Below, one piece after another: positions 3,001 to 18,101 of a DNA stretch of 38,911 nucleotides. Numbering within the stretch: the stretch's first letter is position 1; every line of letters starts with the position of its first letter. The notes beneath the pieces were generated by a model, which was given only the letters and a program-made list of their open reading frames with translations, did not search any database and was not told the origin of the DNA. The position numbers and the translations under genes are program-made. This DNA comes from an uncultured Solibacteraceae bacterium (GTDB lineage: Bacteria > Acidobacteriota > Vicinamibacteria > Vicinamibacterales > SCN-69-37). The stretch spans positions 25,428 through 64,338 of the forward strand of contig CAYZLT010000001.1 of assembly GCA_964479175.1 (NCBI GenBank), read 5' to 3'.

Positions 3001-4637
3001 GTTTTTGGCAGACTGAGGGCAGGCACGAGCACGATGTCCCACGGGTCGATCTCATGCGCGTCCACAATGGCCGCGCGCATCGCCTGAAGGACGTCATCGG
3101 GCGCCATGGAGCGCGCCTGCGTGCGCGGCACCTCCTGCACGAGCACAAGCCGCTCCTGGTCACCCTCGTCCACGCTGAAACAGGATGCCAGTCCGCGCGC
3201 GAGTGATGGATGTGACGCGGAGGCCGTCGCTTCGATGTCCTGCGGATAGTGATTGCGCCCGCGGATGATGACCAGGTCCTTGATGCGACCCGTGACGAAG
3301 AGTTCCCCCTCGTGCAGGAGACCAAGATCGCCGGTCCGCATGAACGGACCGTCACCCTCGGCCGTCATCGCCTGGAACGTTTCAGCCGTCGCCTCATCCC
3401 GTCGCCAGTACCCGGCGGCGACTGAGGGTCCAGCGACCCAAATCTCGCCAACGCGCCCATCGCGACGTTCCCTGGTCTCGGGATCGACGATGGCGATCTG
3501 CAGCCCATCCACCGGTGTGCCGCACCCGACGAGATATCGCGCCTGCGGACTCGACGGGTCTGCGGCCGGACGCACCTCGTGTTGCTCGAGCGCGTCGGCA
3601 TCGGCCGCGAAGTACACGGGATCACCCGTGACCTCCGACCCGGTGACAATCAGCGTCGATTCAGCCAGGCCGTAACACGGATAAAACTGACGGGGATGGA
3701 AGCCGCACTGCGCGAACGCCTTCGCAAACGCGTCCTGCGTTTCGCGGCGGACGGGCTCGGCGCCGTTGTACGCCGTTTCCCACGCGCGCAAATCCAGCGT
3801 CGCCTTCTGCGCGTCGGTCACACCCAGCAGGCACGCTTCGTACGCAAAGTTCGGCCCGCCGCAGTGGGTGCCGCCGTACCGCGTGATCGCCTCAAGCCAC
3901 GTGGCCGGACGCTGAATAAATGTCGACGGCGCCATCAGATGCGCCGGAAACCCCGTGTACAGCGGCTGCAGAACGCCATCGATCAGGCCCATGTCGTGGA
4001 ACGACGGGAGCCAGCAGACACCAACACTGTGAGGTCCAAGATGAAACGACGTCCGCAGACATTCCGAGTTGTGGACGATGTTGGCGTGGGTGACCATCAC
4101 ACCCTTGGGCGTCGACGTGGATCCGGACGTGTACTGCAGCAGCGCCAGATCGGATCCGACGGGCAACACGCTGCTGCCGGGAATCGCATCGGCCGCCACG
4201 ACATCGATCGTGTCAATCCGGCGGAGCGTCAACGGCAACGTGCTCAGCCACTCATCCACCTTCGCCGAGCCCACATCCCCGACCAGCACCACTTGCGGCT
4301 CCGCGTCGTGCACGATCGCGTCAAGCCTCGCGTGATGGCGACGATTGCGAGGGGGGTAGGCGGGAACAGCAATGACGCCGGCCGCCAGACAGCCCAGAAA
4401 AGCCGAAACAAACTCCAGACCGGGGCCATACAGCAGCAATGCCCGATCCCCGAGACGGGTCGCCTCTCGAAGATGAGCGGCGATCGCATCAACGCGACGC
4501 GCCAATTGGACATAGGTCAGCGTCTCAGTTTGAGCGCCCGCGTCGTTCAGCCAGGAAAACGCCAAGGCGTCGGGCCGCCGCGATGCGTGTTCCCTGAGTC
4601 GGTGAAGGAGCGTTTCTGGCTTTTGATGCACACTCAT
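1..4637 (-). CDS. Hybrid fatty acyl-AMP ligase / type I polyketide synthase (FAAL-ACP-KS-AT...), 3' end beyond the left window edge
   Basis: Not in the ORF track because the frame stays open through position 1. My reverse-complement translation from the ATG at 4637..4635 reads [30 protein letters not shown].... It contains [18 protein letters not shown] and [12 protein letters not shown] (acyl-AMP ligase cores), LGVDSLAA (carrier Ser), DTACSSSL (KS Cys), GHSVGE (AT Ser) and ends ...[11 protein letters not shown] at the edge. All checked motif codons share one phase (highest coordinate = 2 mod 3), so this is a single continuous frame of at least 1545 codons. Confidence 0.92.
100..1022 (-). other. 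Acyltransferase domain (Ser codon 741..743), approximate bounds
   Basis: [33 protein letters not shown] motifs. The post-AT YPF linker lies at the window edge. Confidence 0.85.
1311..2573 (-). other. Ketosynthase domain (active-site Cys codon 2064..2066)
   Basis: [14 protein letters not shown] start, [48 protein letters not shown] end. Confidence 0.9.
2600..2825 (-). other. Acyl carrier protein domain (phosphopantetheine Ser codon 2730..2732)
   Basis: [24 protein letters not shown]... is a typical carrier-protein helix II with a DSL serine. Confidence 0.85.
2841..2867. repeat. 9-bp tandem repeat x3 (gYgatttga) inside the FAAL-ACP linker
   Basis: Plus strand reads gtgatttga gtgatttga gcgatttga. 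On the coding strand it encodes [10 protein letters not shown]. It is locally AT-richer than the flanks. Confidence 0.9.
2950..4637 (-). other. FAAL / adenylation-type acyl-AMP ligase domain of the PKS (approximate bounds)
   Basis: [52 protein letters not shown] motifs in the order expected for a fatty acyl-AMP ligase loading domain. Confidence 0.85.
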
Positions 4638-5531: not shown

Positions 5532-5572
5532 ACCTTGAACCTTGGACCCTGGACTCTGTCGGACCTTGGACC
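5486..5572. repeat. Cluster of GGWCC-based 12-mers forming inverted repeats between convergent genes
   Basis: ggtccagggtcc (5486..5497) matches the reverse complement ggaccctggac (5544..5554). ggtccaaggtcc (5503..5514) has an exact reverse complement, ggaccttggacc, at 5561..5572. There are eight GGWCC-type pentamers (one degenerate) in 87 bp. Confidence 0.8.
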
Positions 5573-6495
5573 TAAAAGGTGATCTGCAGACCCGCGGTCA
5601 TCAGGACCTGGCTCTTGTTGTTCAGACGCAGCGGCCGGGTGCCCACTCCCGGAATCGGCACCTGGGCGACGGCCAGCGAGAGCACGTTGTCGTACTTGTA
5701 GGTGAAGTCCACACTCGTGCCGAGGTATTTGTTGAGCTTGCCCTTCAGGCTGATGTTGCCCTCAAACACACGGAACGCCGAGTCGTTGAACGCCTGCTGG
5801 AATGACGCGCGCTGCTCGATGCGCACAAACGGGTTCGGCGTGATGATCAGGCGCTGAATCCCACCCCAGCCCATCAACCAGCGGTCATCAAACTCTGCCA
5901 GGCCCTTGCTCTCACGCTGAAGACCGAGGACCGGCACGAGTCCGATCTTCACCTTCGGCTGATCGAGCGCGAGCAGGCCGACACCGGTAAATACCTGGTG
6001 CGAGTAGTCCACGTTCCGCACGTCGTCTTTGTAGAACGCATACCGGGTCAGGAAAAAATACCGCTGACCATCACGCTGCCGGAAGTCGTAGTCGATCGAA
6101 AACTTCGGCAGGTCCATGACGGTGCCGACGGGGTCAACCACGGCGTAGGTGTAGGACGCTTCGATGCTGACCGCGTTCAGGTTGGTCGATCGCAACAAAC
6201 TGAACGTGCCCTGAAATGACTTCTGTTCGCCCTTGAGGCCAAGTGCTTCGCCTGTGAGGCCAGGAATGCCTGGATCGAGCTGACCCTGACGGAAAGGAGA
6301 TGACGTTATCGACCCTCCGAGGGTGATCGACCGCACCCAGAAGGTGTTTCCAGGAGGAACGAAGCCTCCCATTCCTGGGACCGGGGCCGGCGGCGGAGCC
6401 GGCGGCTGTTGCGGAGGGGCAGGCGTTTGTGCCGCGGTTGACGTCGCGATGACACAAAGAAGTAACGAGAGTGTGAGTAGACGAACTGAACGCAT
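5572..6495 (-). CDS. Outer-membrane beta-barrel protein, DUF481-like
   Basis: Signal peptide MRSVRLLTLSLLLCVIATSTAAQ, Pro-rich linker, alternating beta-strand pattern, C-terminal ...GLQITF. Start taken at the internal ATG 6495 rather than the track start 6534. Confidence 0.6.
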   Translation of the reverse strand: MRSVRLLTLSLLLCVIATSTAAQTPAPPQQPPAPPPAPVPGMGGFVPPGNTFWVRSITLGGSITSSPFRQGQLDPGIPGLTGEALGLKGEQKSFQGTFSLLRSTNLNAVSIEASYTYAVVDPVGTVMDLPKFSIDYDFRQRDGQRYFFLTRYAFYKDDVRNVDYSHQVFTGVGLLALDQPKVKIGLVPVLGLQRESKGLAEFDDRWLMGWGGIQRLIITPNPFVRIEQRASFQQAFNDSAFRVFEGNISLKGKLNKYLGTSVDFTYKYDNVLSLAVAQVPIPGVGTRPLRLNNKSQVLMTAGLQITF

Positions 6496-6517
6496 GAGCG
6501 AGAGATTAGCACGGTGG

Positions 6518-6547
6518 TTGCGAGTCTCCATCAACGTCCGCTATACT
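6518..6547 (+). promoter_or_regulatory. Candidate sigma70-type promoter (TTGCGA-N18-TATACT) for the DUF697-like gene
   Basis: TTGCGA at 6518..6523 and TATACT at 6542..6547, about 50 nt upstream of ATG 6597, which is preceded by GGGAGGA. Confidence 0.4.
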
Positions 6548-6596
6548 TCGCCTCGTCAGTTTGCAAATACGCACCGTGTGTGCGGGAGGAATCGAG

Positions 6597-7031
6597 ATGA
6601 GCGACAAGGATCTACAGGCCCAGGAAGTTGTCAAGAAATACGCCACCTACGCGGCGGGTGCGGGTCTGATCCCGATTCCGACCCTCGACATGGCGGCGAT
6701 CGCCGGTGTCGAGCTCAAGATGCTCGCCGACCTTTCCAAGGTCTACGACGTTCCTTTTGAGAACGATCGTGTGCGGCCGATCGTGGCGGCGGTCATCGGC
6801 GGCTATGTGTCGGCGAACCTCGGCGCCGGCGCCGGTGGCAGCCTGCTGAAGGCCGTGCCGATTTTCGGCACCGTGCTCGGCACCCTCGCCGTGCCGGCCT
6901 TCGCGGCGGGTCTCACGTTCGCCATCGGCAAGGTGTTCACGCAGCACTTCGCCTCCGGCGGCACGTTCCTCGACTTCAACCCCGAGAAGGTGCGCGAGTA
7001 CTTCAAGACGCAGAAGACCTCGGTCGCGTAA
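6597..7031 (+). CDS. DUF697-like small membrane-associated protein
   Basis: KKYATYAAGAGLIPIPTLDMAAIAGVELKMLADLSKVYD and LLKAVPIFGTVLGTLAVPAFAAGLTFAIGKVFTQHF match the pattern I recall for DUF697/YcjF-type domains. GGGAGGA lies 6 nt before the ATG. Confidence 0.6.
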   Translation: MSDKDLQAQEVVKKYATYAAGAGLIPIPTLDMAAIAGVELKMLADLSKVYDVPFENDRVRPIVAAVIGGYVSANLGAGAGGSLLKAVPIFGTVLGTLAVPAFAAGLTFAIGKVFTQHFASGGTFLDFNPEKVREYFKTQKTSVA

Positions 7032-7062
7032 CACGCGCCCAGGTTTCGACGTTGCACTTCCG

Positions 7063-7099
7063 CCGGTTCATCCCTTCGGGGATGGACCGGCGTTTTTTT
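7063..7099 (+). terminator. Rho-independent terminator
   Basis: CCGGTTCATCCC - TTCG loop - GGGATGGACCGG (12-bp stem, one G.T pair), followed by a T7 run. Lies 32 nt after the stop at 7031. Confidence 0.8.
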
Positions 7100-7108
7100 A
7101 TGGGCACG

Positions 7109-8323
7109 CTACTCCAGCGTGACGGCGACGTCCCGGCCGGTCACGATCGCCTGATTCGCCAGGATGCCGACGATCGATGCGCGTGCGCCCTCGGCCAGTG
7201 AACAGGCCACCGGTGCTCCGTCGGTGACACTCTTCAGAAAATCCATCAGTGCGTAGTAGAGGGACGGGTGCGGCAATCCCACGCCGGCCTGCAGGTTGCC
7301 CTGCTCGGCCAGTTGCGTGGCATTGGCGATGAGCACGATGCCTTCTTCGCTGAAGATCTGCTGACGAGTGGCGTAGACCTCCCACCCTTGCGTGGGTGCG
7401 TCGGCCTCCTTGAACAGCCACCCGTGTGTCCAATTCAACCGAATCGAACCATTCACACCGTTCACGACCTCCCACTGCCCCCCGTACGAGTTGGCGAGTG
7501 TGGCGCTGTACCGCATCGCCACACCATCTGCCCAAATCAGATCGAGGTCGATCGTGTCGGCTACGGTGCGCCCGTCCTTGTGATGACGCACGCCGCCGCG
7601 TCCGGCCACACGTGTCGGGTACGACCCGCGCCACCAGTGCGCCACATCAAATTGCTGCGCACCCACCTCACCGGCCAGTCCAATCGAGACTGCCGGGTCG
7701 AGACGCCAGTTGGCCTGTTCACCCGAGTCGCCTCCGCTGGCCGGGAATCGCCACGACGTCTTCCGGTGCCACTGCCCGGCCATCGACACCAGGTCGCGCA
7801 GCTCGGTGCGCACGAGAGGTTGCGCGCGTTTGTACGTGGGATTTGATCGTCCCTGAAACCCCGCCTGACAGATCGTTTCTGACGACGTAGCGGCGGCCAC
7901 CATCGCGCGGCAGTCCTCGACGGTTGATGCGATCGGCGCCTCACAGTACACATGACGGCCGTCCGCAAGAGCGTCTTCCACAATCGCGCGATGCAGATGA
8001 GTCGGCGTCGCCACCACAATCGCGGTCACGTCCGGTCGCTGCTCGAGCATGACCGTGTGGTCGGTGAAGGTCGCGGCCGACTGCGCGCGCTGCGTGGCCA
8101 GCGCCAGCCGTGCTTCCGACCGATCACACACGGCCGCGATCTCGACCTGCGGGATCTTCTGAAGTTCCGTGATGATCGCGCGACCATGCCGGCCGGTCCC
8201 CACGACGCCGACTTTGACGATGATGCCTTGCTGGAGAAATGGGAGAAGGTCAGCCGCCGTCGGCAGCAGCGCCACACCACCAAAGGCGCTGAGTGTCTGA
8301 CCGATAAACGCTCGTCGGTCCAT
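7109..8323 (-). CDS. Gfo/Idh/MocA-family oxidoreductase with Tat signal
   Basis: MDRRAFIGQTLSAFGG twin-arginine leader, VGVVGTGRHGR Rossmann motif. Last gene of the OMP / Cache-channel / SBP operon (3-nt gap to the SBP stop). Confidence 0.8.
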   Translation of the reverse strand: MDRRAFIGQTLSAFGGVALLPTAADLLPFLQQGIIVKVGVVGTGRHGRAIITELQKIPQVEIAAVCDRSEARLALATQRAQSAATFTDHTVMLEQRPDVTAIVVATPTHLHRAIVEDALADGRHVYCEAPIASTVEDCRAMVAAATSSETICQAGFQGRSNPTYKRAQPLVRTELRDLVSMAGQWHRKTSWRFPASGGDSGEQANWRLDPAVSIGLAGEVGAQQFDVAHWWRGSYPTRVAGRGGVRHHKDGRTVADTIDLDLIWADGVAMRYSATLANSYGGQWEVVNGVNGSIRLNWTHGWLFKEADAPTQGWEVYATRQQIFSEEGIVLIANATQLAEQGNLQAGVGLPHPSLYYALMDFLKSVTDGAPVACSLAEGARASIVGILANQAIVTGRDVAVTLE

Positions 8324-8326
8324 GGC

Positions 8327-9496
8327 CTACCACTCGAACGGCACGAGCTTCTCCCCTCGGACCATCGTCAACCAGACGTGATGGCTGCCCTGATGTTCCT
8401 CGCGGGAGAAGCGGAAGGGTTGTCCGACCCCGATGTCGATGGTGCCGAGGCGCTCAAAGGCCTCGATGATCCCTTCGCGCGTGACCGTCGCCCCACTGAG
8501 CGCACGACCAAACGTGCGCGCCGCCAGGAAGCCCTCGAGCGATACGGGTCCAGGTTGTGTGCCTGGAAAAAAGCGTGCAAGTGCCGATCGATACGCGGTG
8601 ACCGCCGGAAGGTCGGCCTCGTAGTGCGGCACCACCTGCGTGATGATGACTCCCTCGCTGTCGGGCCCGAGCGCAGCAATCAGCGCCTCCGATCCGACAA
8701 ACGACACGTTCAGATACGTCACATTGGACAACGCTTGTTTTGCCAGCGAAATGAACTTGGCCGACGCGCCGTACGAACCCACCATGATGATTGCTCGCGG
8801 GCGCACTCGCGCCTGCATGATGGTCAGCAATCCGTCGGCCACATCCAAGGTCCCGCGTTCGTAGCGGCCGTGCGCGAGTATCTTCGCTTCCGGATACCCG
8901 AGTGATTCGAGCGCCGCCACCGCGCCCTGATGCCCGGAGTCGCCGTACGCGTCGTTCTGTGTGAAAAACGCGATCTGCTGGGGCTTGATGCCGCGGCGCA
9001 GCAGGCCACGGACCATGACGCCGGTCTCCTCCGCATAACTCGCGCGGAAGTTGATGACATATCGATCGGGAGGATTTTTTCTGAGCACGTCGGCGCCCGA
9101 GAAGGCGCCAAAGAGCAACGTCTTTCGTTCGTTGGCAATTGGCACCGCCACGGTCGCTCCGGCCGTCCCCACACTGCCGATCACCGCCAGCACCTTCTCC
9201 TGGTCGATGAGGCGCATCATGTTGCCGCGCACTGGCTCCGCCTGATACGCATCGTCAAGTGCAACCAGCCGCAGGCGGTACCCGGCGATGCCGCCAGAGG
9301 CATTGGTTGACTGGATGAACGCCTCAATTCCCATGCGCATGCCGCGACCAAGCTGGCCGGACGGGCCACTCAGCGCGGCCGACATGCCCAGGACCACCTC
9401 GCGCTGCACGGTGTTGACCGATGCCGACCGCACCGGGATCCCCACAAGAATCACGGCTCCCGCACACGCCGCCAGAATCGAGTGACGCATCTTCAT
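8327..9496 (-). CDS. Periplasmic binding protein type I (LivK/Peripla_BP_6-like), orphan
   Basis: Signal peptide MKMRHSILAACAGAVILVG, LGMSAALSGPSGQLG, NVSFVGSEAL. Its ATG overlaps the upstream stop by 1 nt (TGATG at 9494..9498). Paralogous to the 12815..14071 product. Confidence 0.85.
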   Translation of the reverse strand: MKMRHSILAACAGAVILVGIPVRSASVNTVQREVVLGMSAALSGPSGQLGRGMRMGIEAFIQSTNASGGIAGYRLRLVALDDAYQAEPVRGNMMRLIDQEKVLAVIGSVGTAGATVAVPIANERKTLLFGAFSGADVLRKNPPDRYVINFRASYAEETGVMVRGLLRRGIKPQQIAFFTQNDAYGDSGHQGAVAALESLGYPEAKILAHGRYERGTLDVADGLLTIMQARVRPRAIIMVGSYGASAKFISLAKQALSNVTYLNVSFVGSEALIAALGPDSEGVIITQVVPHYEADLPAVTAYRSALARFFPGTQPGPVSLEGFLAARTFGRALSGATVTREGIIEAFERLGTIDIGVGQPFRFSREEHQGSHHVWLTMVRGEKLVPFEW

Positions 9497-11628
9497 CAGT
9501 AGAACACCACAAAGGTGATGACGGTAATCGCCGTCAGAATCACCGGCCAGTACAACAACTTCGGAATGATGTGATCGCCCTGCTCAAGTTTGGGAAAGTG
9601 TCCCGTATAGGTATTGGTCAACGTGATCAACGCCTGGCTGAGAATGGCGGCATAGACGACGAAGTAGAAGTACTCGATATACAGAATCGCCGAGCTCGAC
9701 ATTCTGCGTCGCAGATCAAGTTCCGACAGAATGAGGATGAAAAACAACCCTGAGAATGCGGCCAGCATCTGGACCACGTTGCTGCGAGTGTTGGGATTGA
9801 CCACCAACAACAAGGTGAACACCATGAAGCTGGAGACGGCAATCGGCAACACGCTGGAAAACAGCGGCTCAAGGATCTTGCGGTTGATGATGACGTTGAA
9901 TGCCAGCTCGTTCGCCACACCACCGGCCGAGTCGGCGATACCAAATGAGGTGTTGCGATTTGAGGCGAGGTTGCTGAACTGTGTCCGCGCGACCGACCAC
10001 CCGGGCAACGTCATGTCTTTTTCGAGCCCCAATCGCGCCAGGGGGTGAATGATTTGGTACGACTCGAGATCGGGGATCAAAATCACGCCCTTGTCGAGGT
10101 CCTGGTGCCGAATCCTGAACCGGAAGTCCTGCTGGTCAAGCGGGTACTTCGCATAGTCAAAACTCTGCCGGACCTCGGCCTTCACAAACCACCCAATCGT
10201 CTCTGAGTCCGGGTTCTTGCGCCGATACGCCTCGCGTACGGTGACGTCTGACGCTTCCGGCAGCAAAAAGCCGCGCGTGATGGTCTCCGGAATATTGGCC
10301 GGATAGGTCTGCCAGACGTAGCCGCTGACCTGGATGTTGTTGGGGCCAATGAGCTCAAACGTCTCGAGAATCACGCCCGTCGGCACAAATCGCGGCAACG
10401 TGCCACTGCGCTGCAGGGATGTGCGGGTGGTGTCGAGCACAAATTTGCGCACACTGCCGGCATTGGCAAACACCGTTTGCCCCTCAACGGGCGGCGCGGG
10501 CGCTCCAAACCCGTGTTGCCACAACATGCCGATGCCCACCACCAACATCAGGCAACTGGCGACCACCCCGCCCCACAGGACAAAGATCCTGCCGTCGGAC
10601 CGTTTCAGGATGGTGCTCCACAGGGTCAGCAGACACGCCAGCAGCACGGCCACCGTGATCGTCATTTTCTGGCGGCGGAACATCCGGATGTTCTCCGCCT
10701 GCTGCTGGAAGAACACGATGCCGACGGTCCAGCCGGTGGAGGGAACCGACCTCGACAGAATCCAACTCGCTTCTCCGGTCACCGGGTCGATCAGATTCTC
10801 GATCACGTCGACGCCGGCCGTCCGAGCGGCGTCAAAGATCCGCTGCGCCTGAACCAATGTGCCGGACCTGGCGGCGGCCGCCGGATCGAGATCACCGGAC
10901 TCATCGCCGAATTCCTGCGCGAACGGATGCGAGATCGCGAAGCCGTCTTTCGAGATCAGGAATCCATACCCGACATCCCCGAGGTCGAGGGACTGAATCA
11001 GGTCATCCACTTCAGACAGCGACATCGTCGCGTGCACCACACCGGCGGTGGCCTGCGGGGTTGACGAGGCAGGGTCGGAGAACGGAGTGGCATACTCCAC
11101 GACCGGCCCCTGTTCGCTGTCGGTCGACGGTTCGGTCCAGCCCCCGGCGGACGTGGTGCCGACCTGGTACCAGCGGGTCTCGCCAAGGGTGTAGTCGTAG
11201 AGCGAATCCAGCGGAACAAACACGGTGGATTCGCCCTGCCGTCGGAACGACGGCGCGTGCAGGCGCAGGTTCGGGTCAAACCGGTGCGGCATGAACGCCG
11301 CGCCAACGGCGAGCAGTTGTGGCGTGATGTCGATCGCCCCCTGAAGTCGGGTGGGCACCTCAGCCTTCGGCACGCGGCCGCTGCTGATGTCTGCGGCGAC
11401 GGCGTTCACCACGGCGGGAACCCGACTCAGCTCCGCATCAATGACATTGGCCGCGCGTTCCGCCTCCCTGGCCGCCCGCTCCCGCAATGCGGCGCTCGCG
11501 CGGCTGGAGCCGATCACGTAGAACACCAGGAGCGTCAGCGCGACGGCAAGACTCGCCCACTTCAGGTAATCAACGTACCGAAGCCACGGCCATTGAGCCG
11601 GGGTCACACCGGGCGTGGGATCACTCAC
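9496..11628 (-). CDS. Double-Cache sensor fused to a pentameric ligand-gated ion channel (pLGIC / Cys-loop family)-like module
   Basis: N-terminal TM, then a ~280-aa periplasmic region with dCache-like features (RWYQVG...GGWTEP, GVVHATMSLSEV, GYGFLISKDGFAISHP). Next come two TM helices and a ~200-aa beta-rich domain carrying the Cys-loop-equivalent signature KYPLDQQDFRFRI and the pre-M1 FNVIINRKILEP. Four C-terminal TM helices follow in an M1-M4 arrangement. GTG start at 11628. Confidence 0.65.
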   Translation of the reverse strand: MSDPTPGVTPAQWPWLRYVDYLKWASLAVALTLLVFYVIGSSRASAALRERAAREAERAANVIDAELSRVPAVVNAVAADISSGRVPKAEVPTRLQGAIDITPQLLAVGAAFMPHRFDPNLRLHAPSFRRQGESTVFVPLDSLYDYTLGETRWYQVGTTSAGGWTEPSTDSEQGPVVEYATPFSDPASSTPQATAGVVHATMSLSEVDDLIQSLDLGDVGYGFLISKDGFAISHPFAQEFGDESGDLDPAAAARSGTLVQAQRIFDAARTAGVDVIENLIDPVTGEASWILSRSVPSTGWTVGIVFFQQQAENIRMFRRQKMTITVAVLLACLLTLWSTILKRSDGRIFVLWGGVVASCLMLVVGIGMLWQHGFGAPAPPVEGQTVFANAGSVRKFVLDTTRTSLQRSGTLPRFVPTGVILETFELIGPNNIQVSGYVWQTYPANIPETITRGFLLPEASDVTVREAYRRKNPDSETIGWFVKAEVRQSFDYAKYPLDQQDFRFRIRHQDLDKGVILIPDLESYQIIHPLARLGLEKDMTLPGWSVARTQFSNLASNRNTSFGIADSAGGVANELAFNVIINRKILEPLFSSVLPIAVSSFMVFTLLLVVNPNTRSNVVQMLAAFSGLFFILILSELDLRRRMSSSAILYIEYFYFVVYAAILSQALITLTNTYTGHFPKLEQGDHIIPKLLYWPVILTAITVITFVVFY

Positions 11629-11631
11629 GTG

Positions 11632-12732
11632 TTAAAAAATTCCTGCGCGCTTGAGTCGCGCCGTGGGATTGACGATGACGATCAGGTCAAAGCGGTGATT
11701 GACCGGGACCGGGAACGTGTTGTCGAAGGCCTTGGTGTGGTACCAGATGAGCGACATGTCGGCGGTCACTGGGAACGTGCCGATCGTATACCACCGCTTG
11801 CCGACACCGTAGCGGTCACCATTGACGGTGGGAATGTAGGACCGATCCACGGACATGACACCCGCATTCACCGTCAACTTGCCAAACTTCAAGTCCACTG
11901 ACGCGTTCAATCCCTTGCCCTTCGGAGTGCCGGTGAACGTATTGGTCCCGGTCCGCTCCAGGTCCGACACGCGCTGATAGGCCTCGAATCGCACACCGGT
12001 CACCACCTTCGCAGCCGCAGGCGTCCGAATCACGAGAGCCTCGCGGAGGATGTCACGACCGTCTTCGTGCGTGTAATCGACCGACGCGGTGACCCGTGGC
12101 GTCAGCCTGACCCCCAGCAGGACCTGCCCGTAGTTGTAGTCAAAGCTGTCATCCAACCGGCGGAACACGTTGGGCTGGGCCACACCAAAGTGGCCGATGG
12201 TGCCCGACAGTTGGGTGATGCGCCCGGAGGTGGGCCGCACGGTGACGCGTTGACCCACGAGGTAGCCGTCCATGTCGTAGGAGATGTTCTCGGACACGTC
12301 CCCGCGGTTCGGGCCGAGGCCACCCACCTGCAGTTCCAGCCCAGAGACCGGTGCCGCGGACAGGAAGAGATGGCGCATCCAGAACTTGCCAACGAAGTCG
12401 CCCTTCCCCATACCCGTATCGTTCCAACTGGCAACGTACGTGGGGCCCGCAGAGGCCATCATGTTGACGCTGTATTTGCCGGCCGCGTCAAACAGCAGTC
12501 GCCCACGCGTCAGGCCGTGCCACTGAATACCGTCGGCGGTAACCACCTCGGCGGAGGTCTTGTTCCACCGATATCGAAGTCCCGCCTGCACTGCCTGCAC
12601 ATCGAGCCATCGTCGAATCGCCGGCGGCTCCGCTGGAGCGGCCGGGGCGGGTGTCTGAGCCAAGGTGGAGACGGGGGTCGCCAGGGCGGCGAGTCCGAAC
12701 ACGGCAAGCGATGCGAGATGAGGACGAATCAT
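11632..12732 (-). CDS. Outer-membrane beta-barrel (porin-like) protein
   Basis: Signal peptide MIRPHLASLAVFGLAALATPVSTLAQ, alternating strand pattern, C-terminal ...LKRAGIF. Start taken at ATG 12732 (ATG 12753 is also possible; the track start 12813 is unlikely). Confidence 0.65.
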   Translation of the reverse strand: MIRPHLASLAVFGLAALATPVSTLAQTPAPAAPAEPPAIRRWLDVQAVQAGLRYRWNKTSAEVVTADGIQWHGLTRGRLLFDAAGKYSVNMMASAGPTYVASWNDTGMGKGDFVGKFWMRHLFLSAAPVSGLELQVGGLGPNRGDVSENISYDMDGYLVGQRVTVRPTSGRITQLSGTIGHFGVAQPNVFRRLDDSFDYNYGQVLLGVRLTPRVTASVDYTHEDGRDILREALVIRTPAAAKVVTGVRFEAYQRVSDLERTGTNTFTGTPKGKGLNASVDLKFGKLTVNAGVMSVDRSYIPTVNGDRYGVGKRWYTIGTFPVTADMSLIWYHTKAFDNTFPVPVNHRFDLIVIVNPTARLKRAGIF

Positions 12733-12814
12733 TGCGTGGAGATTGTCCTTCATTACGGGCGTTGTTCCAATCCTGCTATCCTCTCGTCTCTTATCCCTTT
12801 GGAGGACGACCATC

Positions 12815-14071
12815 GTGACGCGACGTTCGGTCTTGATCAGTGCAATCGTGGTGGGCGCTGTGGGCCTGTCGGCCGCTCAGCCGCCCAAAGCCACCGAGGG
12901 GGTGTCGCCAACCTCGATCACGATTGGGATGTCCGCCGCCTTCACGGGAGCCTCCCGCAGCCTCGGCATCGAGCTCTTCCGCGGGTCGATGGCCTACCTG
13001 GCCGAAGTCAATCGCAATGGGGGCGTTCACGGCCGCCAGATCAGGATTCAGGCATACGACGACGGGTATCAGCCGAACGCGGCGATGAAGAACTCCCTCA
13101 AGTTGATGCTGGAAGACGACGTGTTCCTGCTGTTCAACTATGTCGGAACGCCCACGGTCACCCGTGTCCTGCCACTGCTGAAGAAGTATCAAAACCTCCA
13201 CTTTTCCCTGTTTTTCCCGTTTACAGGCGCACAGCCGCACCGCGAACCGCCGTACGGGTCGCTGGCGGTCAACCTCCGAGCCTCCTATCGGCAAGAGACG
13301 CAGGGGCTGGTCGATAACTTCCTGACGGCCGGCCGGTCGCGCATTGCGGTGTTCTACCAAGCCGACGCGTACGGTCGGAGTGGCTGGGTCGGCGTACGCG
13401 AGGCGCTCACAAAGAAGGGCCTCAAGATCGCCGGCGAAGCCACCTACACCCGGGGCACCAAGTACTCGGAGAGCCTCGACCGGCAGGTGGCGATCATGCA
13501 GGAAATCAAACCTGACGCCATCATTTCCATCGGTGCCTATGAGGCGTGTGCGGCATTCATCCGTGATGCCCGGAAGGCCGGCCTCGATGTGCCCATCGCA
13601 AACGTCTCGTTTGTCGGCAGCGAAAGCCTCCTGGCCCTGTTGAGCGCATCGTCGGCCACCGACGACCGCGACTACACGGTGAACCTCGTGAACTCGCAGG
13701 TGGTGCCCAGCTACGAAAGCGCCACCGCGCCGGTCGTGCGCGAATACCGGGCGCTGATGGAGAAACACCAACCGGACCCGCCGCAGGGGTTCGGCGACGC
13801 CGGCTACAAAATGTTGCCCTACAGCTTTGTCAGCCTCGAAGGGTTCCTGAACGCAAAACTGCTGGTCGAGGTGCTCAAGCGCATGGGCCCATCGCCGCAA
13901 CGCGCACACATTGTGTCGACGATCGAGCAATTGTCCAACATCGAATTGGGCATGGGCACGCCGGTGTCGTTTTCGCGCGAGCGGTATCAAGGGTCGGACG
14001 CGATTTATTACACCACGGTGCGCGACGGACGCTTCGTGCCCATTACGAACTGGCAGGAGTGGCGAAAGTGA
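12815..14071 (+). CDS. Periplasmic binding protein type I (LivK/Peripla_BP_6-like), orphan paralog
   Basis: GTG 12815 preceded by GGAGGA at 12801..12806. Signal peptide VTRRSVLISAIVVGAVGLSAAQ. IGMSAAFTGASRSLG, NVSFVGSESL and the C-terminal FSRERYQGS parallel the 8327..9496 protein. Confidence 0.85.
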   Translation: MTRRSVLISAIVVGAVGLSAAQPPKATEGVSPTSITIGMSAAFTGASRSLGIELFRGSMAYLAEVNRNGGVHGRQIRIQAYDDGYQPNAAMKNSLKLMLEDDVFLLFNYVGTPTVTRVLPLLKKYQNLHFSLFFPFTGAQPHREPPYGSLAVNLRASYRQETQGLVDNFLTAGRSRIAVFYQADAYGRSGWVGVREALTKKGLKIAGEATYTRGTKYSESLDRQVAIMQEIKPDAIISIGAYEACAAFIRDARKAGLDVPIANVSFVGSESLLALLSASSATDDRDYTVNLVNSQVVPSYESATAPVVREYRALMEKHQPDPPQGFGDAGYKMLPYSFVSLEGFLNAKLLVEVLKRMGPSPQRAHIVSTIEQLSNIELGMGTPVSFSRERYQGSDAIYYTTVRDGRFVPITNWQEWRK

Positions 14072-14799
14072 GAATCGCGAAACTCTTTCAAAAAACAATG
14101 TTCGGGATCTTCCTGTTGTTCGGGTTGATTGCGGTTTCCACCTCAGCGTTGTGTGTTTATACGGTCGACAAACAACTGTCGACCGAATACGAGGCCAACA
14201 GTCGCACGATTGCGCAGACGATCGCCAACTCCAGTCTCGATATCATCCTCAATCGCGACCTGTCCACCCTGCAGTCCCTCATTGACCAGTTCAAGGAACT
14301 CCAGGGCATCAAATACATCTATATCGTCGACGAACACGGCGACTGGCTGGCGCACACGTTTGTGCCGGGGATTCCGAAGGAAATTCAGTCGGCCGACCGC
14401 ACACCGGGCGCCACCGTTGAGCGGCAGTTGCCTGGGTTTGGCGAATTCGTCGAGGTCTCGAGCCCGATTCTCGACGGAATCGCCGGATCGGTGCACGTGG
14501 GCATGGACAAGGGCCTGATTGCGCTGAAGATTCAGACCGCGATCGGCCAGCAGATCTACCTGATCTCGATCATCTTCATCGTGTCGATCATCGGGTCCTA
14601 CCTGCTGGTGAATCTGGCCGCCAAACCCATCACTCGCCTGGGTGGCTACGCCACACATCTGGTGGCACCCGATGCGCCCAACGCGCTGACGCCAGACGAA
14701 GCGCAGGCGCTCCTGGAGCGGGCCGATGAAGTCGGCCAGATGGCGCGCCTCTATCGCCATCTGGCGCTGCGCAGCGAAGGCGCGGAACTCGCGCCGTGA
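14059..14799 (+). CDS. Membrane protein: periplasmic PDC/Cache-like domain + HAMP, with no output domain
   Basis: TM1 FGIFLLFGLIAVSTSALCVY, a ~130-aa periplasmic domain, TM2 IYLISIIFIVSIIGSYLLVNLAA, then a HAMP-like KPITRLGGYATHL...DEVGQMARLYRHLA, then the stop. Alternative GTG 14068 would give a GTGA overlap with the SBP stop. The stop overlaps the MFS GTG (GTGA at 14796..14799). Confidence 0.65.
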   Translation: MAKVRIAKLFQKTMFGIFLLFGLIAVSTSALCVYTVDKQLSTEYEANSRTIAQTIANSSLDIILNRDLSTLQSLIDQFKELQGIKYIYIVDEHGDWLAHTFVPGIPKEIQSADRTPGATVERQLPGFGEFVEVSSPILDGIAGSVHVGMDKGLIALKIQTAIGQQIYLISIIFIVSIIGSYLLVNLAAKPITRLGGYATHLVAPDAPNALTPDEAQALLERADEVGQMARLYRHLALRSEGAELAP

Positions 14800-16142
14800 C
14801 CGAAGCGGCACCGACCAATCGCTGGCTCGTCGCCATCATGGGCACGATCCTGCAGTTATGCCTCGGGACGGTGTACGCCTGGAGCTTTTTCCAGGCGATG
14901 CTGGTGAAGTCGTACCGCTGGTCGTATACCGACACGGCGTGGGCGTTCAGCCTGGTCATTTGCACTCTCGGAATTTCAGCCGCGTGGGCCGGCGTCAACC
15001 TGCCACGCTTCGGGCCGCGCAAACTGGCCGTCACCGGCGGCTTGTTGTTCAGCTTGAGCTACATCCTCGGTGGCCTGGCGCTGCACCTCGAAAGCCGCAC
15101 GTTGTTTTACCTCGGCTACGGCGTGGTCGGAGGATTCGGCATTGGTCTGGGCTACGTCACGCCGGTCTCTACCGTCGCCAAATGGTTCCCCGATAAGAAG
15201 GGGCTTGTCACCGGCGTCGTCGTGATGGGTTTCGGCATCGGTGCGTTTGTGATGAGCAAGGTGCTGGTCCCGCTGCTGCTGCACGCGACCGACGGCGACC
15301 TTGTGTATGTATTTGTCTCGCTGGGCGTTTTTTTCGCCATGGTCCTGCTGCCCGTGGCGATGTTCATGAAGGACCCACCAGCAGTTGCGGCCGCGGCAGC
15401 GGTCTCAACGACCGTGGTCACACCGGATCTGCCCACGAGTCACTACCTGAAGTCGAGCCAGTTCCTCATCATGTGGCTGGTCTTCTTCTGCAACATCACC
15501 GCCGGTATCTCGGTCATCAGTTTTCAGTCGCCTCTGCTGCAGGAAATTTGGGGGCTGGCCGACCCGACTGCGGAACCGGCCGCGCTGGCCACCTACGGAG
15601 CGACACTCATTGCCGTCAGCTCCCTGTTTAACGGCGTCGGGCGCTTGCTCTGGGGCATGATTTCCGACCGCATCGGACGCGTTGAGAGTTTCCGGCTCCT
15701 GCTCGCCTCCCAGATGATCGTGTTCGGCGTGTTGATGACCGAACGGGATCCGTGGATCTTCAGCGCACTCGTCTGTTATGTCCTACTGTGTTTTGGAGGC
15801 GGATTTGGCACGATGCCGTCGTTTGTCATCGATGTCTTTGGCGCCAAACGGATGTCGGTGATGTACGGCACGTTGCTCACCGCCTGGGCGGCCGCCGGCG
15901 TGGTCGGGCCCATGCTCGTGGCATCGGTCAAGGACTACTATCCGGACCGCGCCGTCCTCTATTGTTTCCTCGTCGGCGTCATGTTCCTTGGTGCGGGGTT
16001 TATTTTTTCGTTCCTGGCAACCAACGAACGGTGTGTTCCGGGGAAACCCGCACTCGACGATCTTGGGATTGCTCCCGAATATCTCCCAGCACCACGTACG
16101 CGGTTGACCACGCGTCACACAGTCGCGCCGACGGCCCCGTAA
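14796..16142 (+). CDS. MFS transporter, oxalate/formate antiporter (OFA)-like
   Basis: 12 predicted TM helices. The N-terminal LQLCLGTVYAWSFF and the GYVTPVSTVAKWFPDKKGLVTG loop are characteristic of OFA-family MFS proteins. Confidence 0.8.
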   Translation: MTEAAPTNRWLVAIMGTILQLCLGTVYAWSFFQAMLVKSYRWSYTDTAWAFSLVICTLGISAAWAGVNLPRFGPRKLAVTGGLLFSLSYILGGLALHLESRTLFYLGYGVVGGFGIGLGYVTPVSTVAKWFPDKKGLVTGVVVMGFGIGAFVMSKVLVPLLLHATDGDLVYVFVSLGVFFAMVLLPVAMFMKDPPAVAAAAAVSTTVVTPDLPTSHYLKSSQFLIMWLVFFCNITAGISVISFQSPLLQEIWGLADPTAEPAALATYGATLIAVSSLFNGVGRLLWGMISDRIGRVESFRLLLASQMIVFGVLMTERDPWIFSALVCYVLLCFGGGFGTMPSFVIDVFGAKRMSVMYGTLLTAWAAAGVVGPMLVASVKDYYPDRAVLYCFLVGVMFLGAGFIFSFLATNERCVPGKPALDDLGIAPEYLPAPRTRLTTRHTVAPTAP

Positions 16143-16796: not shown

Positions 16797-18101
16797 TCAG
16801 AGCTTGCGAACCTTCCCCGTGCGCGGGTCGAACCCGAAGGCGGCCCGTTCCCAGAACGACCGCTGCGCCAGATCCACGATCACCATGACCTTGGTGCCCA
16901 GTTCAACGTCACTCATCGGCTTTTCCCGCGTGCGGATGCAGTCCACCCAGTGGCGGCGCAACATCTCCTGCGGGTCGAGCACCTCGCCTTCTGGTGCAAT
17001 CTCGCGCTCTTCGATCTCGTCCGCCCAGATGCGCTCGGGCCTGATGATCGCGTTGCGGCCGCCGACAAACAGGTTGGCCTTGTGACCGCGGATGATGCGC
17101 TCGAGGCCCAGCTCATTACACGTCGACCCGGCCACGACCATCGTGTGGTCGTGCTCGAAATCAATGTTGATGTTGATCTGGTCCGGGTTCTCCATGGCCT
17201 TGTCGATCATGTGGCCACCGGTCGCGACGACACGGATGGGCCACCCGACATTCAGCGCCTTGAGCGTCGGCGTCACGTGATGCACCAGAAGGTCGCCAAT
17301 GATGCCGGACGAGTATTTCTTGTAGCGGCGCCACCGGGCGTAAATCTCCGGATTCCACGCGGCCTTGCCAAGGGGTTTGCACCACTGATCCCAGTCGAGA
17401 TTGCCTCCCGGCGTCCAGGCCGGGTCAATCGCGTAGTACGTCCACTCGCCGGTCTTGGTGTTGCGGCAATAACTGGTCTGACTCCACACCGGCTTGCCGA
17501 TCGCGCCTTCTGCGATCAGTTTCTCCGCGGCGACGTACGACGGCGTCATCACAAACTGCGTGCCGACGACGACAATGGCGGAAGGGTTGGCCTGGACCAC
17601 TTTGCGGAGACGCTGGGCGTCCTTGAGGTTCAAGGTCATCGGCTTTTCGACGTACACGTCTTTGCCGGCCTTGATGGCGTCTTCGGCCATGCGCCCGTGC
17701 CAGTGTTCAGGCGTGGCGATCAGGACGCCATGAATGTCTGGACGGGCGAGCACTTCTTCATGACGACGATAAGTCGCGATGTCCCCACCTTGCACTTTGT
17801 CGACGCGTGCCTTGGCATTGGCCACTCGGGGATCACACAGGTCACACAGCGCCTCAAGGCGGACCGGCCGTCCATCACGGGCGTTCCTGGCGAAGGCTTC
17901 CGCATGGCCTGTTCCCATGCCGCCCGTGCCGATGACCGCGATCTTGACGACATCGTTCGGGCCCAATGCGGGGCGGGGCTGCGCCGCAGGAATGGGTTCC
18001 AGATCTTCGGCCGCCTCGGCCTCTCGACCGGCCAGCCCCGCAGCGACCGCAGCCGCCGCGGTGGTCTTGAGGAAGTGACGACGGGATTTCGGGGTGGTCA
18101 T
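16797..18101 (-). CDS. Gfo/Idh/MocA-family oxidoreductase with Tat signal
   Basis: [20 protein letters not shown] leader, [13 protein letters not shown] Rossmann motif, EKPMT motif. Confidence 0.85.

Follow-up and report, generated by a model that had tools for sequence, protein, structure and literature searches.

Introduction

[quoted passage not shown] The control of such channels by accessory N-terminal domains is known from DeCLIC only. A family of prokaryotic pLGIC homologs carrying Cache sensors was predicted computationally by Tasneem et al. (2004), who recovered it by PSI-BLAST (PMC549065). In that study, the extra domains were placed between the signal peptide and the ligand-binding domain, and a transmembrane (TM) hairpin was not mentioned. 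Fusions with type I periplasmic binding proteins (PBP-I) and operons with PBP-II were described for other pLGIC groups, and no PBP-I operon was given for the Cache group (PMC549065). Literature searches that paired Cache or dCache with pLGIC or DeCLIC, or that looked for additional TM helices in pLGICs, turned up only the 2004 study.

The window analyzed here, i.e., 38,911 nucleotides from an uncultured Solibacteraceae bacterium, contains a gene that very probably encodes a dCache-fused homolog of the pLGIC superfamily. By its sequence, the protein is not new as a kind and belongs to the same family as the MCP-N + Cache ART-LGICs of Tasneem et al. The first-pass annotation had noted that comparative genomics knew of pLGICs with extra N-terminal sensors, and the 2004 study indeed described this very family (PMC549065). 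Its remark that no Cache-pLGIC had been functionally characterized also agrees with the literature, in which DeCLIC was, as of November 2025, the only pLGIC with a characterized N-terminal domain (PMC12664993).

Gene Organization and Membrane Topology

The channel ORF (9496..11628, minus strand, as are all genes and protein parts below) starts with GTG and encodes a 710 aa subunit, assigned from the ORF call, the AlphaFold2 (AF2) model, Foldseek, and hhalign. An alternative JGI gene call uses a GTG start 7 codons further downstream, giving 703 aa. Two metagenome contigs, independent of each other and alike in synteny, carry the identical protein. Because of these two contigs, about 2,000 homologous clusters, and the overlap of its stop with the next start, the ORF is a real gene and not a chance ORF.

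The membrane anchor TM1 (11500..11568, residues ~21-43; hydropathy, AF2 helix 14-67) precedes a periplasmic double-Cache sensor of dCache_1 type with an alpha/beta make-up (10672..11499, residues 44-319), which was assigned by Pfam, PDB matches, the family profile, and Foldseek. TM2 (10600..10671, residues ~320-343; hydropathy, AF2) runs on from the last Cache helix as the first helix of a hairpin. The second hairpin helix, here called TM0 (10507..10587, residues 348-374), leads into the channel ectodomain (ECD). In hydropathy and AF2 secondary structure, the hairpin helices span residues 314-343 and 348-374. The pLGIC-type periplasmic ECD (9874..10506, residues 375-585; AF2, Foldseek to GLIC, hhalign) is composed of a linker, a helix at 390-407, and a beta-sandwich at 413-583. 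It holds the Pro-loop, the equivalent of the Cys-loop, QSFDYAKYPLDQQ (10129..10167, residues 488-500), aligned to Y119-P120-D122 of GLIC. The transmembrane channel domain M1-M4 (9499..9873, residues 586-710; AF2, hhalign, alignment conservation) comprises four helices at 586-609, 616-643, 650-671, and 687-709, as given by hydropathy and AF2 secondary structure. The signature-loop sequence KYPLDQQDFRFRI was placed at residues 494-506 by translation, and NRKILEP at residues 582-588.

This layout agrees with the first-pass annotation, which had proposed TM1 with a double-Cache-like periplasmic sensor (hydropathy, Pfam dCache_1, profile match to 3li8, Foldseek), a two-helix membrane hairpin (hydropathy, AF2 helices), and a pLGIC-like module of a ~200 aa beta domain and four TM helices (hhalign, Foldseek). 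The F/YPxDxQ-type loop and the pre-M1 NRKILEP that it had quoted are all present at the checked residues.

Seven TM helices were predicted per subunit. Two of them lie between the Cache and beta domains, and therefore both domains face one side of the membrane, which by homology would be the periplasm. The earlier proposal that both ligand-binding domains are periplasmic is thus supported, in sidedness by homology. By the same helix count and homology, the ECD is predicted to be extracytoplasmic and the C-terminus outside. The positive-inside rule, i.e., charge bias, did not discriminate between topologies. The loops on the cytoplasmic side are all short, at about 5, 7, and 16 residues, and the protein thus lacks an output domain there.

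TM0 shows a conserved face (W352...S355...S359...G365-I366...W370), and it is also found ahead of the channel domain in Cache-less family members. This conserved extra helix before the channel domain is an addition of the present work.

Sensor Domain

TM1 and TM2 flank the dCache domain, and the PDB sequence matches of the latter were PctA, PctB, and Mlp. The search against dCache_1 (PF02743) that the first-pass annotation had suggested was positive, with E=2.5e-7 and 30.9 bits in the target, although below the gathering score of 45. The domain was matched in 26 of 56 relatives (best E=5.6e-18). The family profile aligned with the dCache sensor 3li8 at E=5.7e-29, and in Foldseek the target gave a target-normalized TM score of 0.74-0.78 to 3lic and 3li8 (0.78 for 3li8).

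The amino-acid motif of dCache_1AA domains, ascribed to Gumerov et al. 2022, reportedly consists of Y121, R126, W128, Y129, Y144, and D173 (PctA numbering) in the membrane-distal pocket. It was mapped onto the target through the PctB alignment. The target keeps the motif positions Y146, W153, and Y154, and T151, S168, and T201 replace the equivalents of R126, Y144, and D173. Judged by this motif, an amino-acid-sensing role of the Cache was rejected. The absence of this motif from the Cache pocket, as read from the alignment, is an addition of the present work. Across the family, the columns of the motif and pocket are variable, while the aromatics of the membrane-distal pocket (Y146, W153, Y154, W164) are still conserved.

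Channel Domain

Pfam Neur_chan_LBD (PF02931) and Neur_chan_memb (PF02932) were not matched by the full protein at E<=1, by the C-terminal half alone even at E<=10, or at E<=0.01 by any of the 56 proteins of the family that were searched. Scanning the full protein, the C-terminal half, and 56 relatives for pLGIC domains in Pfam and NCBIfam was likewise negative, and the precomputed Pfam annotation lists Cache domains only. The hmmscan check against the two Neur_chan models, proposed in the first-pass annotation, thus failed in the target and its relatives.

Profile and structure comparisons were positive. The family profile aligned by hhalign with a GLIC-like channel profile, built from 41 genuine PF02931/PF02932 proteins and GLIC-seeded, at 97.9% probability and E=4.4e-13; the 279 aligned columns reach from beta1 to M4 (query 401-711). 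Against the PDB, the C-terminal half of the family profile matched GLIC entries only, at E=1e-3 to 1e-2. The AF2 model of the target (pLDDT 90.8, pTM 0.88) matched whole GLIC chains in Foldseek at E~1e-10 with a target-normalized TM score of 0.72-0.76. A Cache-less member, P0011, was modeled separately, and its top 50 Foldseek matches were pLGICs only. The AlphaFold models (pLDDT 91 and 87) matched whole chains of GLIC, ELIC, and GABA-A with TM scores of 0.6-0.76; the AF2 training set included pLGIC structures, and the folds are predicted rather than experimental.

The first-pass annotation had suggested comparing an AlphaFold monomer with GLIC and ELIC, and whole-chain matches to both were found (TM 0.6-0.76). 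It had also staked its reading on a pLGIC HMM or structural match of the C-terminal half; the HMM part did not appear, and the structural part did (GLIC, E~1e-10). Because the profile-profile and structural tests are positive, the Pfam failure is not read as refutation. It is extremely unlikely that the C-terminal half is an unrelated four-TM module resembling pLGICs by chance or convergence. The missing Pfam Neur_chan match and an identity to GLIC of just 14-17% would fit such a module, but the hhalign alignment (E=4.4e-13) spans both the ECD and the TM domain with motifs in register, two independent AF2 models match only pLGICs, and the family was recovered independently by PSI-BLAST in 2004. 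In silico, the encoded subunit is shown to belong to a divergent clade of the pLGIC (Pro-loop/Cys-loop) superfamily.

In the family alignment, the Pro-loop keeps P496 in 104/104 sequences, Y/F495 in 104/104 (Y 84, F 20), and D498 in 93/104. Its Y-P-x-D is in register with Y119-P120-D122 of GLIC in the profile alignments. The Pro-loop proline was described as the sole absolutely conserved pLGIC residue (Jaiteh 2016, PMC4795631). The pre-M1 R583 (94/104) aligned to GLIC R192, and P595 (99/104) to the M1 proline of GLIC. Landmarks of the channel domain are M2 at 616-643 (F630, R640), Y650/E652/Y659 in M3, and W694-P695 in M4. GYxWQ, R640, Y650-x-E652, and F629-F630 are invariants specific to the family. 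In hhalign, no counterparts were found for the reference-profile invariants W48, D50, R52, and L53 of the canonical WxDxRL after beta2, or for P248 and T254 of the Pro/Tyr/Thr motif in the M2-M3 loop. Columns conserved in at least 80% make up 25% of the ECD versus 5% of the dCache, a contrast that is inflated because the members were chosen by C-terminal similarity.

M2 is conserved along its whole length. An 8-residue gap introduced by hhalign leaves its register uncertain. If R640 is taken as 19', the canonical 9' Leu gate is replaced by Phe (F630, 97/104), with Ala/Gly at 2' and 6' and Phe/Leu/Ile at 9'/13'/16', i.e., a very hydrophobic lining without polar rings. The acidic M1-M2 loop or ring is absent in the target, though present in most relatives, leaving the target without a charged selectivity ring. 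These features would suit a pLGIC fold without conduction, in which the pentameric scaffold acts as a membrane receptor or transducer, e.g., regulating a partner protein or a membrane property, with a hydrophobic M2 that stays closed throughout. The lining under the most natural register, the lack of polar rings and of a charged selectivity ring in the target, and several missing canonical coupling motifs point that way. However, all characterized members of the superfamily are channels, a non-ionic signal would find neither a cytoplasmic domain nor a conserved cytoplasmic partner gene to receive it, M2 is conserved at full length, and most relatives carry the acidic M1-M2 loop as in cation channels. 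A non-conducting protein is therefore considered unlikely.

An exhaustive HMM search recovered 2,003 homologous clusters at 50% identity across many phyla, which overturned the view of a rare family taken from 12 matches in a word-indexed search. Culturable members include Nannocystis, Maribacter, Ruegeria, and Baaleninema (PCC 7105, formerly Geitlerinema). The proteins are annotated only as "cache domain-containing protein". Because Pfam and NCBI models miss the channel half, thousands of putative ion channels still bear only a Cache label, 20 years after the computational description.

Operon and Periplasmic Binding Protein

Downstream of the channel gene, an orphan type I PBP (Peripla_BP_6, with signal peptide) is encoded at 8327..9496 in the same operon, and the channel stop and the PBP start share 1 nt (TGATG). 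An OMP-like ORF with a signal peptide and C-terminal Phe (11632..12813) lies upstream, 3 nt from the channel start, in the same operon; it gave no Pfam or PDB match. The last operon gene, a Gfo/Idh/MocA oxidoreductase with a TAT-like N-terminus (7109..8323), follows 3 nt after the PBP. A scan for promoters and terminators stayed at chance level, except for a hairpin at 7061-7092 beyond the last gene.

Related loci were collected by a genome scan with a 13-sequence alignment. A PBP gene neighbors the channel gene in 8 of the 63 loci, i.e., downstream in L002, L003, L004, and L046 (59-69% identity) and upstream in L022, L024, L027, and L034 (38-43% identity). The PBP-bearing loci form two separate, distant channel clades with shuffled gene order. 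The other 55 loci have a Cache without a PBP neighbor, and therefore a PBP cannot be required throughout the family. The occurrence of a type I PBP gene beside the channel gene in two distant clades is an addition of the present work. Precedents exist in pLGICs that have a PBP-I as a fused domain or as the product of a neighboring gene (PMC549065).

Other neighbors were rejected as conserved partners. The OMP-like, Gfo/Idh/MocA, sCache_3_2, and MFS genes are not kept beside homologs at the 63 loci, and the large genes (~1,100 aa) that lie ahead of members lacking the Cache, on their upstream side, belong to two unrelated lineage-specific families rather than one common partner. No conserved cytoplasmic partner gene was found at related loci.

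The type I PBP LuxP docks on the tandem-PDC sensor LuxQ. By analogy, the dCache could be mainly a docking platform for a ligand-loaded PBP, with the PBP alone setting the stimulus in the clade of the target. This arrangement is possible, though doubtful, and it would be a special case within the favored reading given below, not a full rival to it. The PBP adjacency in two clades with shuffled gene order, the orphan state of the PBP, with no ABC transporter genes found nearby, and the Cache pocket without the amino-acid motif are consistent with it. Against it stand the 55/63 loci with a Cache and no PBP neighbor, and the kept aromatics of the distal pocket (Y146, W153, Y154, W164).

One operon tightly couples the channel and PBP with a porin-like OMP and an oxidoreductase of periplasmic type, which could also be taken to mean uptake, i.e., a PBP delivering a charged solute that permeates the pore, rather than signaling. 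This is very unlikely, as neither the OMP nor the oxidoreductase is kept with the channel at other loci and pLGIC pores carry small inorganic ions. We know of no precedent for PBP-dependent uptake through a pLGIC.

Proposed Mechanism

The reading that is favored, and held to be rather probable as a whole, is a dCache-fused pLGIC homolog with gated ion conduction and Cache/PBP input. In silico, each subunit runs from TM1 through a periplasmic dCache to TM2, makes a short turn in the cytoplasm, and continues with TM0, a pLGIC beta-sandwich in the periplasm, and M1-M4. By homology, five subunits would assemble in the inner membrane around a pore lined by M2 and would give as output an ion flux that alters membrane potential or ion content. 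Context and conservation suggest that the variable dCache is the input determining specificity, and that the translationally coupled orphan PBP is part of the input in the clade of the target, where it may capture a periplasmic solute and dock on the receptor. The signal might reach the conserved ECD and TM domain by periplasmic Cache-ECD contact or by packing of the TM2-TM0 hairpin on the channel bundle. Coupling to the gate would involve the interface set of the Pro-loop P496/D498, pre-M1 R583, M2-top R640, and M3-top Y650/E652.

As a tentative extension, the canonical pLGIC ectodomain may no longer be the agonist site but a conserved transducer, with specificity moved to the membrane-anchored dCache and, for some clades, to a dedicated orphan PBP as well, and the signal passed to the pore via the TM2-TM0 hairpin on M1/M3/M4. 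If true, this would make a three-tier periplasmic sensing system, from PBP to Cache to channel, built on subunits with 7 TM helices, and its gating pathway would be one that has been described for no pLGIC. The family, with ~2,000 clusters, offers a second, very different, and very widespread model of control by accessory domains. A well-understood dCache fold, a candidate soluble co-receptor in the PBP, and the extra TM helices add to its experimental appeal.

Comparison with Known Systems

The closest relatives are the MCP-N + Cache ART-LGICs, whose named members are MA1624/Meth2754 of Methanosarcina, Chut2789 of Cytophaga, and Mdeg1480 of Microbulbifer. The target shares 32% identity with Meth2754 (sequence from the Tasneem supplement) over 301 residues (E=7e-55). 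Like this group, it is ~700 aa long (696-709 aa) with the ECD starting at ~375, and has the common motifs IPTGVFIQS, GYxWQ, LRQxFDYSxYPFD, YNTNFG, PELYFN, YLEYFYF, and C-terminal FY. It differs as an additional member from an uncultured Acidobacteriota-like organism.

GLIC and ELIC resemble the target in the beta-sandwich ECD and four-helix TM domain (TM 0.6-0.76), the Pro-loop Y-P-x-D, GW before beta9, the pre-M1 Arg, the M1 Pro, and a short M3-M4 loop. In contrast, the target has no Pfam match, lacks WxDxRL and the M2-M3 Pro/Tyr/Thr, and has its own family invariants, and it carries N-terminal TM1, dCache, and TM2 and an uncleaved conserved TM0.

DeCLIC of Desulfofustis shares a large periplasmic N-terminal module of about half of the mass, thought to be a gating modulator, but that module consists of two soluble jelly-roll lobes fused straight to the ECD and senses Ca2+ (PMC12664993). 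The target has instead a dCache with flanking TM helices, joined to the ECD via a membrane hairpin, and a jelly-roll N-terminal domain was not found.

In LuxP-LuxQ, PBP-I-fused pLGICs, and iGluR-type receptors, a type I PBP is functionally paired with a membrane receptor bearing a PDC-type or channel ectodomain. In the target, the PBP is a separate gene whose product is a putative partner of the channel.

The dCache_1 receptors and kinases, i.e., PctA/PctB, Mlp24/37, and M. mazei HK1S-Z2 (3li8), show the same order of TM1, double-PDC, and TM2 and the same fold. The output in the target is a channel module, not HAMP, MCP, kinase, or GGDEF, and a pentameric rather than dimeric context would be expected for its sensor.

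Channel gene and architecture

The ORF was confirmed at the position given in the first-pass annotation, i.e., 9496..11628 on the minus strand, with a GTG start and a 710-aa product. A JGI gene call uses an alternative GTG seven codons downstream, which gives 703 aa. The ORF is a real gene, because two independent JGI metagenome contigs carry the identical protein with unchanged neighbours, its stop overlaps the ATG of the next gene by one base (TGATG), and 3 nt separate its start from the end of the upstream gene. By hydropathy and AlphaFold secondary structure, TM1 (residues ~21-43) is followed by an alpha/beta domain (residues 44-319), a hairpin of two helices (314-343 and 348-374), a further helix (390-407), a stretch of approximately eight long beta strands (413-583), and, at the C-terminus, four helices (586-609, 616-643, 650-671, and 687-709). 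Both motifs noticed earlier were found, i.e., KYPLDQQDFRFRI at residues 494-506 and NRKILEP at residues 582-588.

Homology of the C-terminal half to pentameric ligand-gated ion channels

The search with the Pfam models named in the first-pass annotation, Neur_chan_LBD (PF02931) and Neur_chan_memb (PF02932), was negative for the whole protein, the C-terminal half (E ≤ 10), and 56 relatives (E ≤ 0.01). The precomputed Pfam annotation of the homologues listed Cache domains only, with no channel domain, and their sole informative database name was the NCBI entry "cache domain-containing protein". The failure of Pfam on the channel half is informative in itself.

Three more sensitive and mutually independent tests of this half were positive, i.e., the family profile, hhalign, and AlphaFold2 with Foldseek. 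In its C-terminal half, the family profile matched GLIC entries only (E = 1e-3 to 2e-2), in register, with YPlDqq aligned to YPFDSQ of GLIC and the pre-M1 Arg to its R192. For the second test, a profile was made from 41 natural relatives of GLIC, each carrying PF02931, with or without PF02932; hhalign aligned the family with it from beta1 through the end of M4 (279 columns, 97.9% probability, E = 4.4e-13). For the target, AlphaFold2 with a 104-sequence alignment and no templates gave a model with a mean pLDDT of 90.8 and pTM of 0.88. Foldseek matched this model to whole GLIC chains (~311 residues, beta-sandwich extracellular domain (ECD) plus transmembrane domain (TMD); E ~ 1e-10, TM 0.72-0.76), with GABA-A and glycine receptors next in order. 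A second model, of the Cache-less relative P0011 from its own 27-sequence alignment (pLDDT 86.8), returned only pLGICs (pentameric ligand-gated ion channels) among its top 50 matches, i.e., GABA-A, ELIC, GLIC, and GlyR. The earlier reading of a Cache sensor, a hairpin, and a pLGIC-type module is thus supported by profile-profile and structural tests. Chance resemblance of the C-terminal half to pLGICs is effectively excluded.

The sensor half

The dCache_1 model anticipated by the first-pass annotation matched residues 144-304 (E = 2.5e-7), although its 30.9 bits were under the gathering score of 45. By phmmer against PDB, the target matched the dCache chemoreceptor domains of PctB, PctA, and Mlp. 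The 104-member family profile covered the whole domain of the M. mazei dCache sensor 3li8 (E = 5.7e-29), and the AlphaFold model fitted 3lic/3li8 with a target-normalised TM of 0.74-0.78. Among 56 relatives, Pfam assigned dCache_1 to 26, Cache_3-Cache_2 to 17, MCP-like_PDC_1 to 15, and dCache_2 to 9.

The amino-acid-sensing dCache motif, reportedly the one described by Gumerov and colleagues in 2022, was mapped onto the target through the PctB alignment. Y146, W153, and Y154 were kept, and the backbone-binding Arg, Tyr, and Asp were replaced by T151, S168, and T201. Given these replacements and the variability of the motif columns across the family, the sensor is a dCache, though one outside the amino-acid-sensing type.

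Membrane topology and the TM0 helix

Seven TM helices were predicted. Exactly two of them, the hairpin, lie between the Cache domain and the beta-sandwich, and therefore both ectodomains are on the same side. This agrees with the topology proposed earlier; the side is assigned as the periplasm by homology of both domains, and the positive-inside rule does not discriminate between topologies. The cytoplasmic loops are short (~5, 7, and 16 residues) and leave no cytoplasmic output domain, so ion flux would be the only evident output.

In TM0 (348-374), the second helix of the hairpin, conservation is seen at W352 (95/104), S359 (70), G365 (70), and W370 (87). Cache-less members carry TM0 at the N-terminus, with an equal W...S...S...W pattern and high model confidence, which point to a retained TM helix rather than a cleaved signal peptide. 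On that reading, the clade core would have five predicted TM helices and the Cache-fused form seven. Extra domains were placed only "between the signal peptide and the LBD" by Tasneem et al. (2004; PMC549065), and our literature search found no account of additional TM helices in pLGICs.

Conserved residues and possible mechanism

In the 104-sequence alignment, the Pro-loop is kept at P496 (104), Y/F495 (104), and D498 (93). Also kept are pre-M1 R583 (94/104), M1 P595 (99/104), M2-top R640 (102/104), Y650 (99/104), E652 (96/104), and Y659 (103/104). These residues gather at the ECD-TMD interface, the pattern reported for the superfamily (Jaiteh et al., 2016; PMC4795631). The canonical set is nevertheless incomplete. 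In the alignment against the GLIC profile, the WxDxRL motif and the P/Y/T motif of the M2-M3 loop, both of the GLIC group, had no counterpart in the family.

Columns at least 80% conserved make up 25% of the ECD, similar to the TMD, and 5% of the Cache domain; the ranking of members used their C-terminal half, which makes the ECD-Cache contrast in part an artefact of selection and leaves the ECD-TMD comparison unaffected. The pocket positions of the Cache domain are variable, and stimulus specificity is likely set by this membrane-anchored domain.

By homology, the subunit would assemble as a homopentamer around an M2-lined pore. Owing to an 8-residue gap in the hhalign alignment, the register of M2 is uncertain. 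With R640 at 19', the position suggested by hhalign, the pore-facing residues would be Ala/Gly at 2' and 6', Phe630 at 9' (97/104), Leu/Phe at 13', and Ile at 16'. The M1-M2 loop is acidic in most relatives (consensus T-K-E-E-E-K-S), whereas the target has NPNTRS. The hydrophobic M2 is in favour of a rival, less likely explanation, i.e., a receptor scaffold that does not conduct. In a conducting channel, the gate may be coupled through the interface residues P496/D498, R583, R640, and Y650/E652, and the signal may arrive by a periplasmic Cache-ECD contact or by the TM2-TM0 hairpin. The high whole-chain pTM (0.88) suggests that the relative arrangement of the domains is defined in the model.

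Operon and neighbouring genes

The gene downstream of the channel (8327-9496) encodes a signal-peptide-bearing type-I periplasmic binding protein (PBP; Peripla_BP_6, E = 1.5e-51), whose closest solved structure is 4kv7 (E = 6e-91), a homologue indicating that such a PBP is amenable to crystallisation. No ABC transporter genes were found near it. Orthologous PBP genes adjoin the channel in two arrangements. They are directly downstream in four loci from Acidobacteriota (59-69% identity) and directly upstream in four others, of which two are Thermodesulfobacteriota, one is Spirochaetia, and one carries the label Deltaproteobacteria (38-43% identity). When a neighbour-joining tree was made from the channel domain, these two sets of loci separated into different clades. 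Linkage kept across phyla despite altered gene order argues for functional pairing of channel and PBP, although it occurs in only 8 of 63 loci. A precedent is LuxP, which docks on the tandem-PDC sensor LuxQ. The Cache domain could likewise be solely a dock for the PBP, or, much less likely, the protein could be an uptake channel fed by it; the reading preferred here is that the orphan PBP probably acts together with the Cache domain in setting stimulus specificity. Further precedents have been described (PMC549065), with PBP-I domains present as fusions in other bacterial pLGICs and with PBP or Cache genes that share operons with such channels.

The first operon gene, an OMP-like ORF (11632-12813, minus strand), has a signal peptide and a C-terminal ...AGIF, and gave no match in Pfam or PDB. 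DUF481 outer-membrane proteins occur upstream of homologous channels in two loci (L001 and L004); a DUF481 gene is also present in the window, at 5572-6534. A strong, GC-rich 14-bp hairpin with a T-run (7061-7092) lies between the convergent DUF697 (+) and Gfo/Idh/MocA (-) genes, and is likely a bidirectional terminator closing the four-gene operon.

Several Gfo/Idh/MocA oxidoreductases, two with TAT-like N-termini, and a xylose-isomerase-like TIM-barrel gene were found at 7109-8323 and 16797-20163. Together these genes suggest that the surroundings of the channel operon share a theme of periplasmic oxidation of sugar or inositol, one not conserved with the channel elsewhere. The divergent neighbour operon (12743-16142, plus strand) is a second trio of PBP, Cache, and membrane transport protein with overlapping gene boundaries, i.e., Peripla_BP_6 (12743-14071), an sCache_3_2 protein of 246 aa that has two TM helices but lacks an output domain (14059-14799), and, at 14796-16142, an MFS transporter. 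This trio was not found beside homologous channels elsewhere.

Family extent and comparison with known systems

A word-indexed search with the C-terminal half gave only 12 relatives. The rarity that this would imply is badly wrong, since an exhaustive search by HMM yielded 2,003 clusters at 50% identity, with E ≤ 1e-30 for 1,170. Among the best 150 of the 2,003, 110 are target-like (630-800 aa) and 23 are stand-alone forms (330-460 aa). A GTDB genome scan gave the 63 loci, the closest of which (58-62% identity) are from Vicinamibacterales, Solibacteraceae, and other Acidobacteriota MAGs. The remainder include Cyanobacteria, Cytophagales, Flavobacteriaceae, Nannocystis, Rhodobacterales, Thermodesulfobacteriota, Spirochaetia, and Lentisphaeraceae. 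Among the organisms with a family member, Nannocystis, Maribacter, Ruegeria sediminis, and Baaleninema simplex PCC 7105 are culturable.

Three cyanobacterial loci (L007, L011, and L012) have two tandem Cache-pLGIC genes, e.g., 1723-3672 and 4008-5957 in L007, so heteromeric channels are possible. On a 1.4-Mb Acidobacteriota MAG contig (L003, 6001-7018), the channel gene falls into two reading frames, 6001-6171 and 6164-7018, for which the gene calls are P0211 (503 aa) and P0006 (229 aa). Either a frameshift/pseudogene or a fault in the assembly accounts for the split. Cache-less members at L026, L031, and L032 and at L038, L039, L042, and L062 have large lineage-specific upstream genes, i.e., an AAA ATPase and an unknown 1,115-1,239-aa protein in gammaproteobacterial loci, and a SAM/adenylate cyclase/AAA_16/TPR protein in Rhodobacterales. 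No homology was found between the large upstream proteins of these two groups. At L026, an eCIS_core (DUF4157) protein lies downstream. Rare architectures are a 1,282-aa member (most likely P0095, judged by length), in which Pfam matched a long TPR-repeat array, and P0062 (974 aa), matched by the channel profile in two stretches.

The first-pass annotation correctly stated that N-terminal sensor fusions had been noted by comparative genomics: "MCP-N + Cache" fusions to ART-LGICs were described in Methanosarcina, Cytophaga, and Microbulbifer (Tasneem et al., 2004; PMC549065). Nothing joining Cache domains with pLGICs was found in the later literature that was searchable. The first-pass view that no Cache-pLGIC has been functionally characterised also holds, as DeCLIC was the only pLGIC with a characterised N-terminal domain in a November 2025 paper (PMC12664993). 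The novelty of the target is modest. The PBP pairing, the TM0 helix, and pointing out the persisting annotation gap of the channel half are useful additions of the present analysis. In the supplementary alignment of Tasneem et al., MA1624, Meth2754, Chut2789, and Mdeg1480 show the hallmark motifs of the target family, with ~700 aa and the ECD from ~375. The target and Meth2754 (sequence from that supplement) share 32% identity over 301 residues (E = 7e-55). Because this equals the level with other family members, the target is, by sequence comparison, a new addition to a family whose pLGIC identity had been predicted by computation in 2004.
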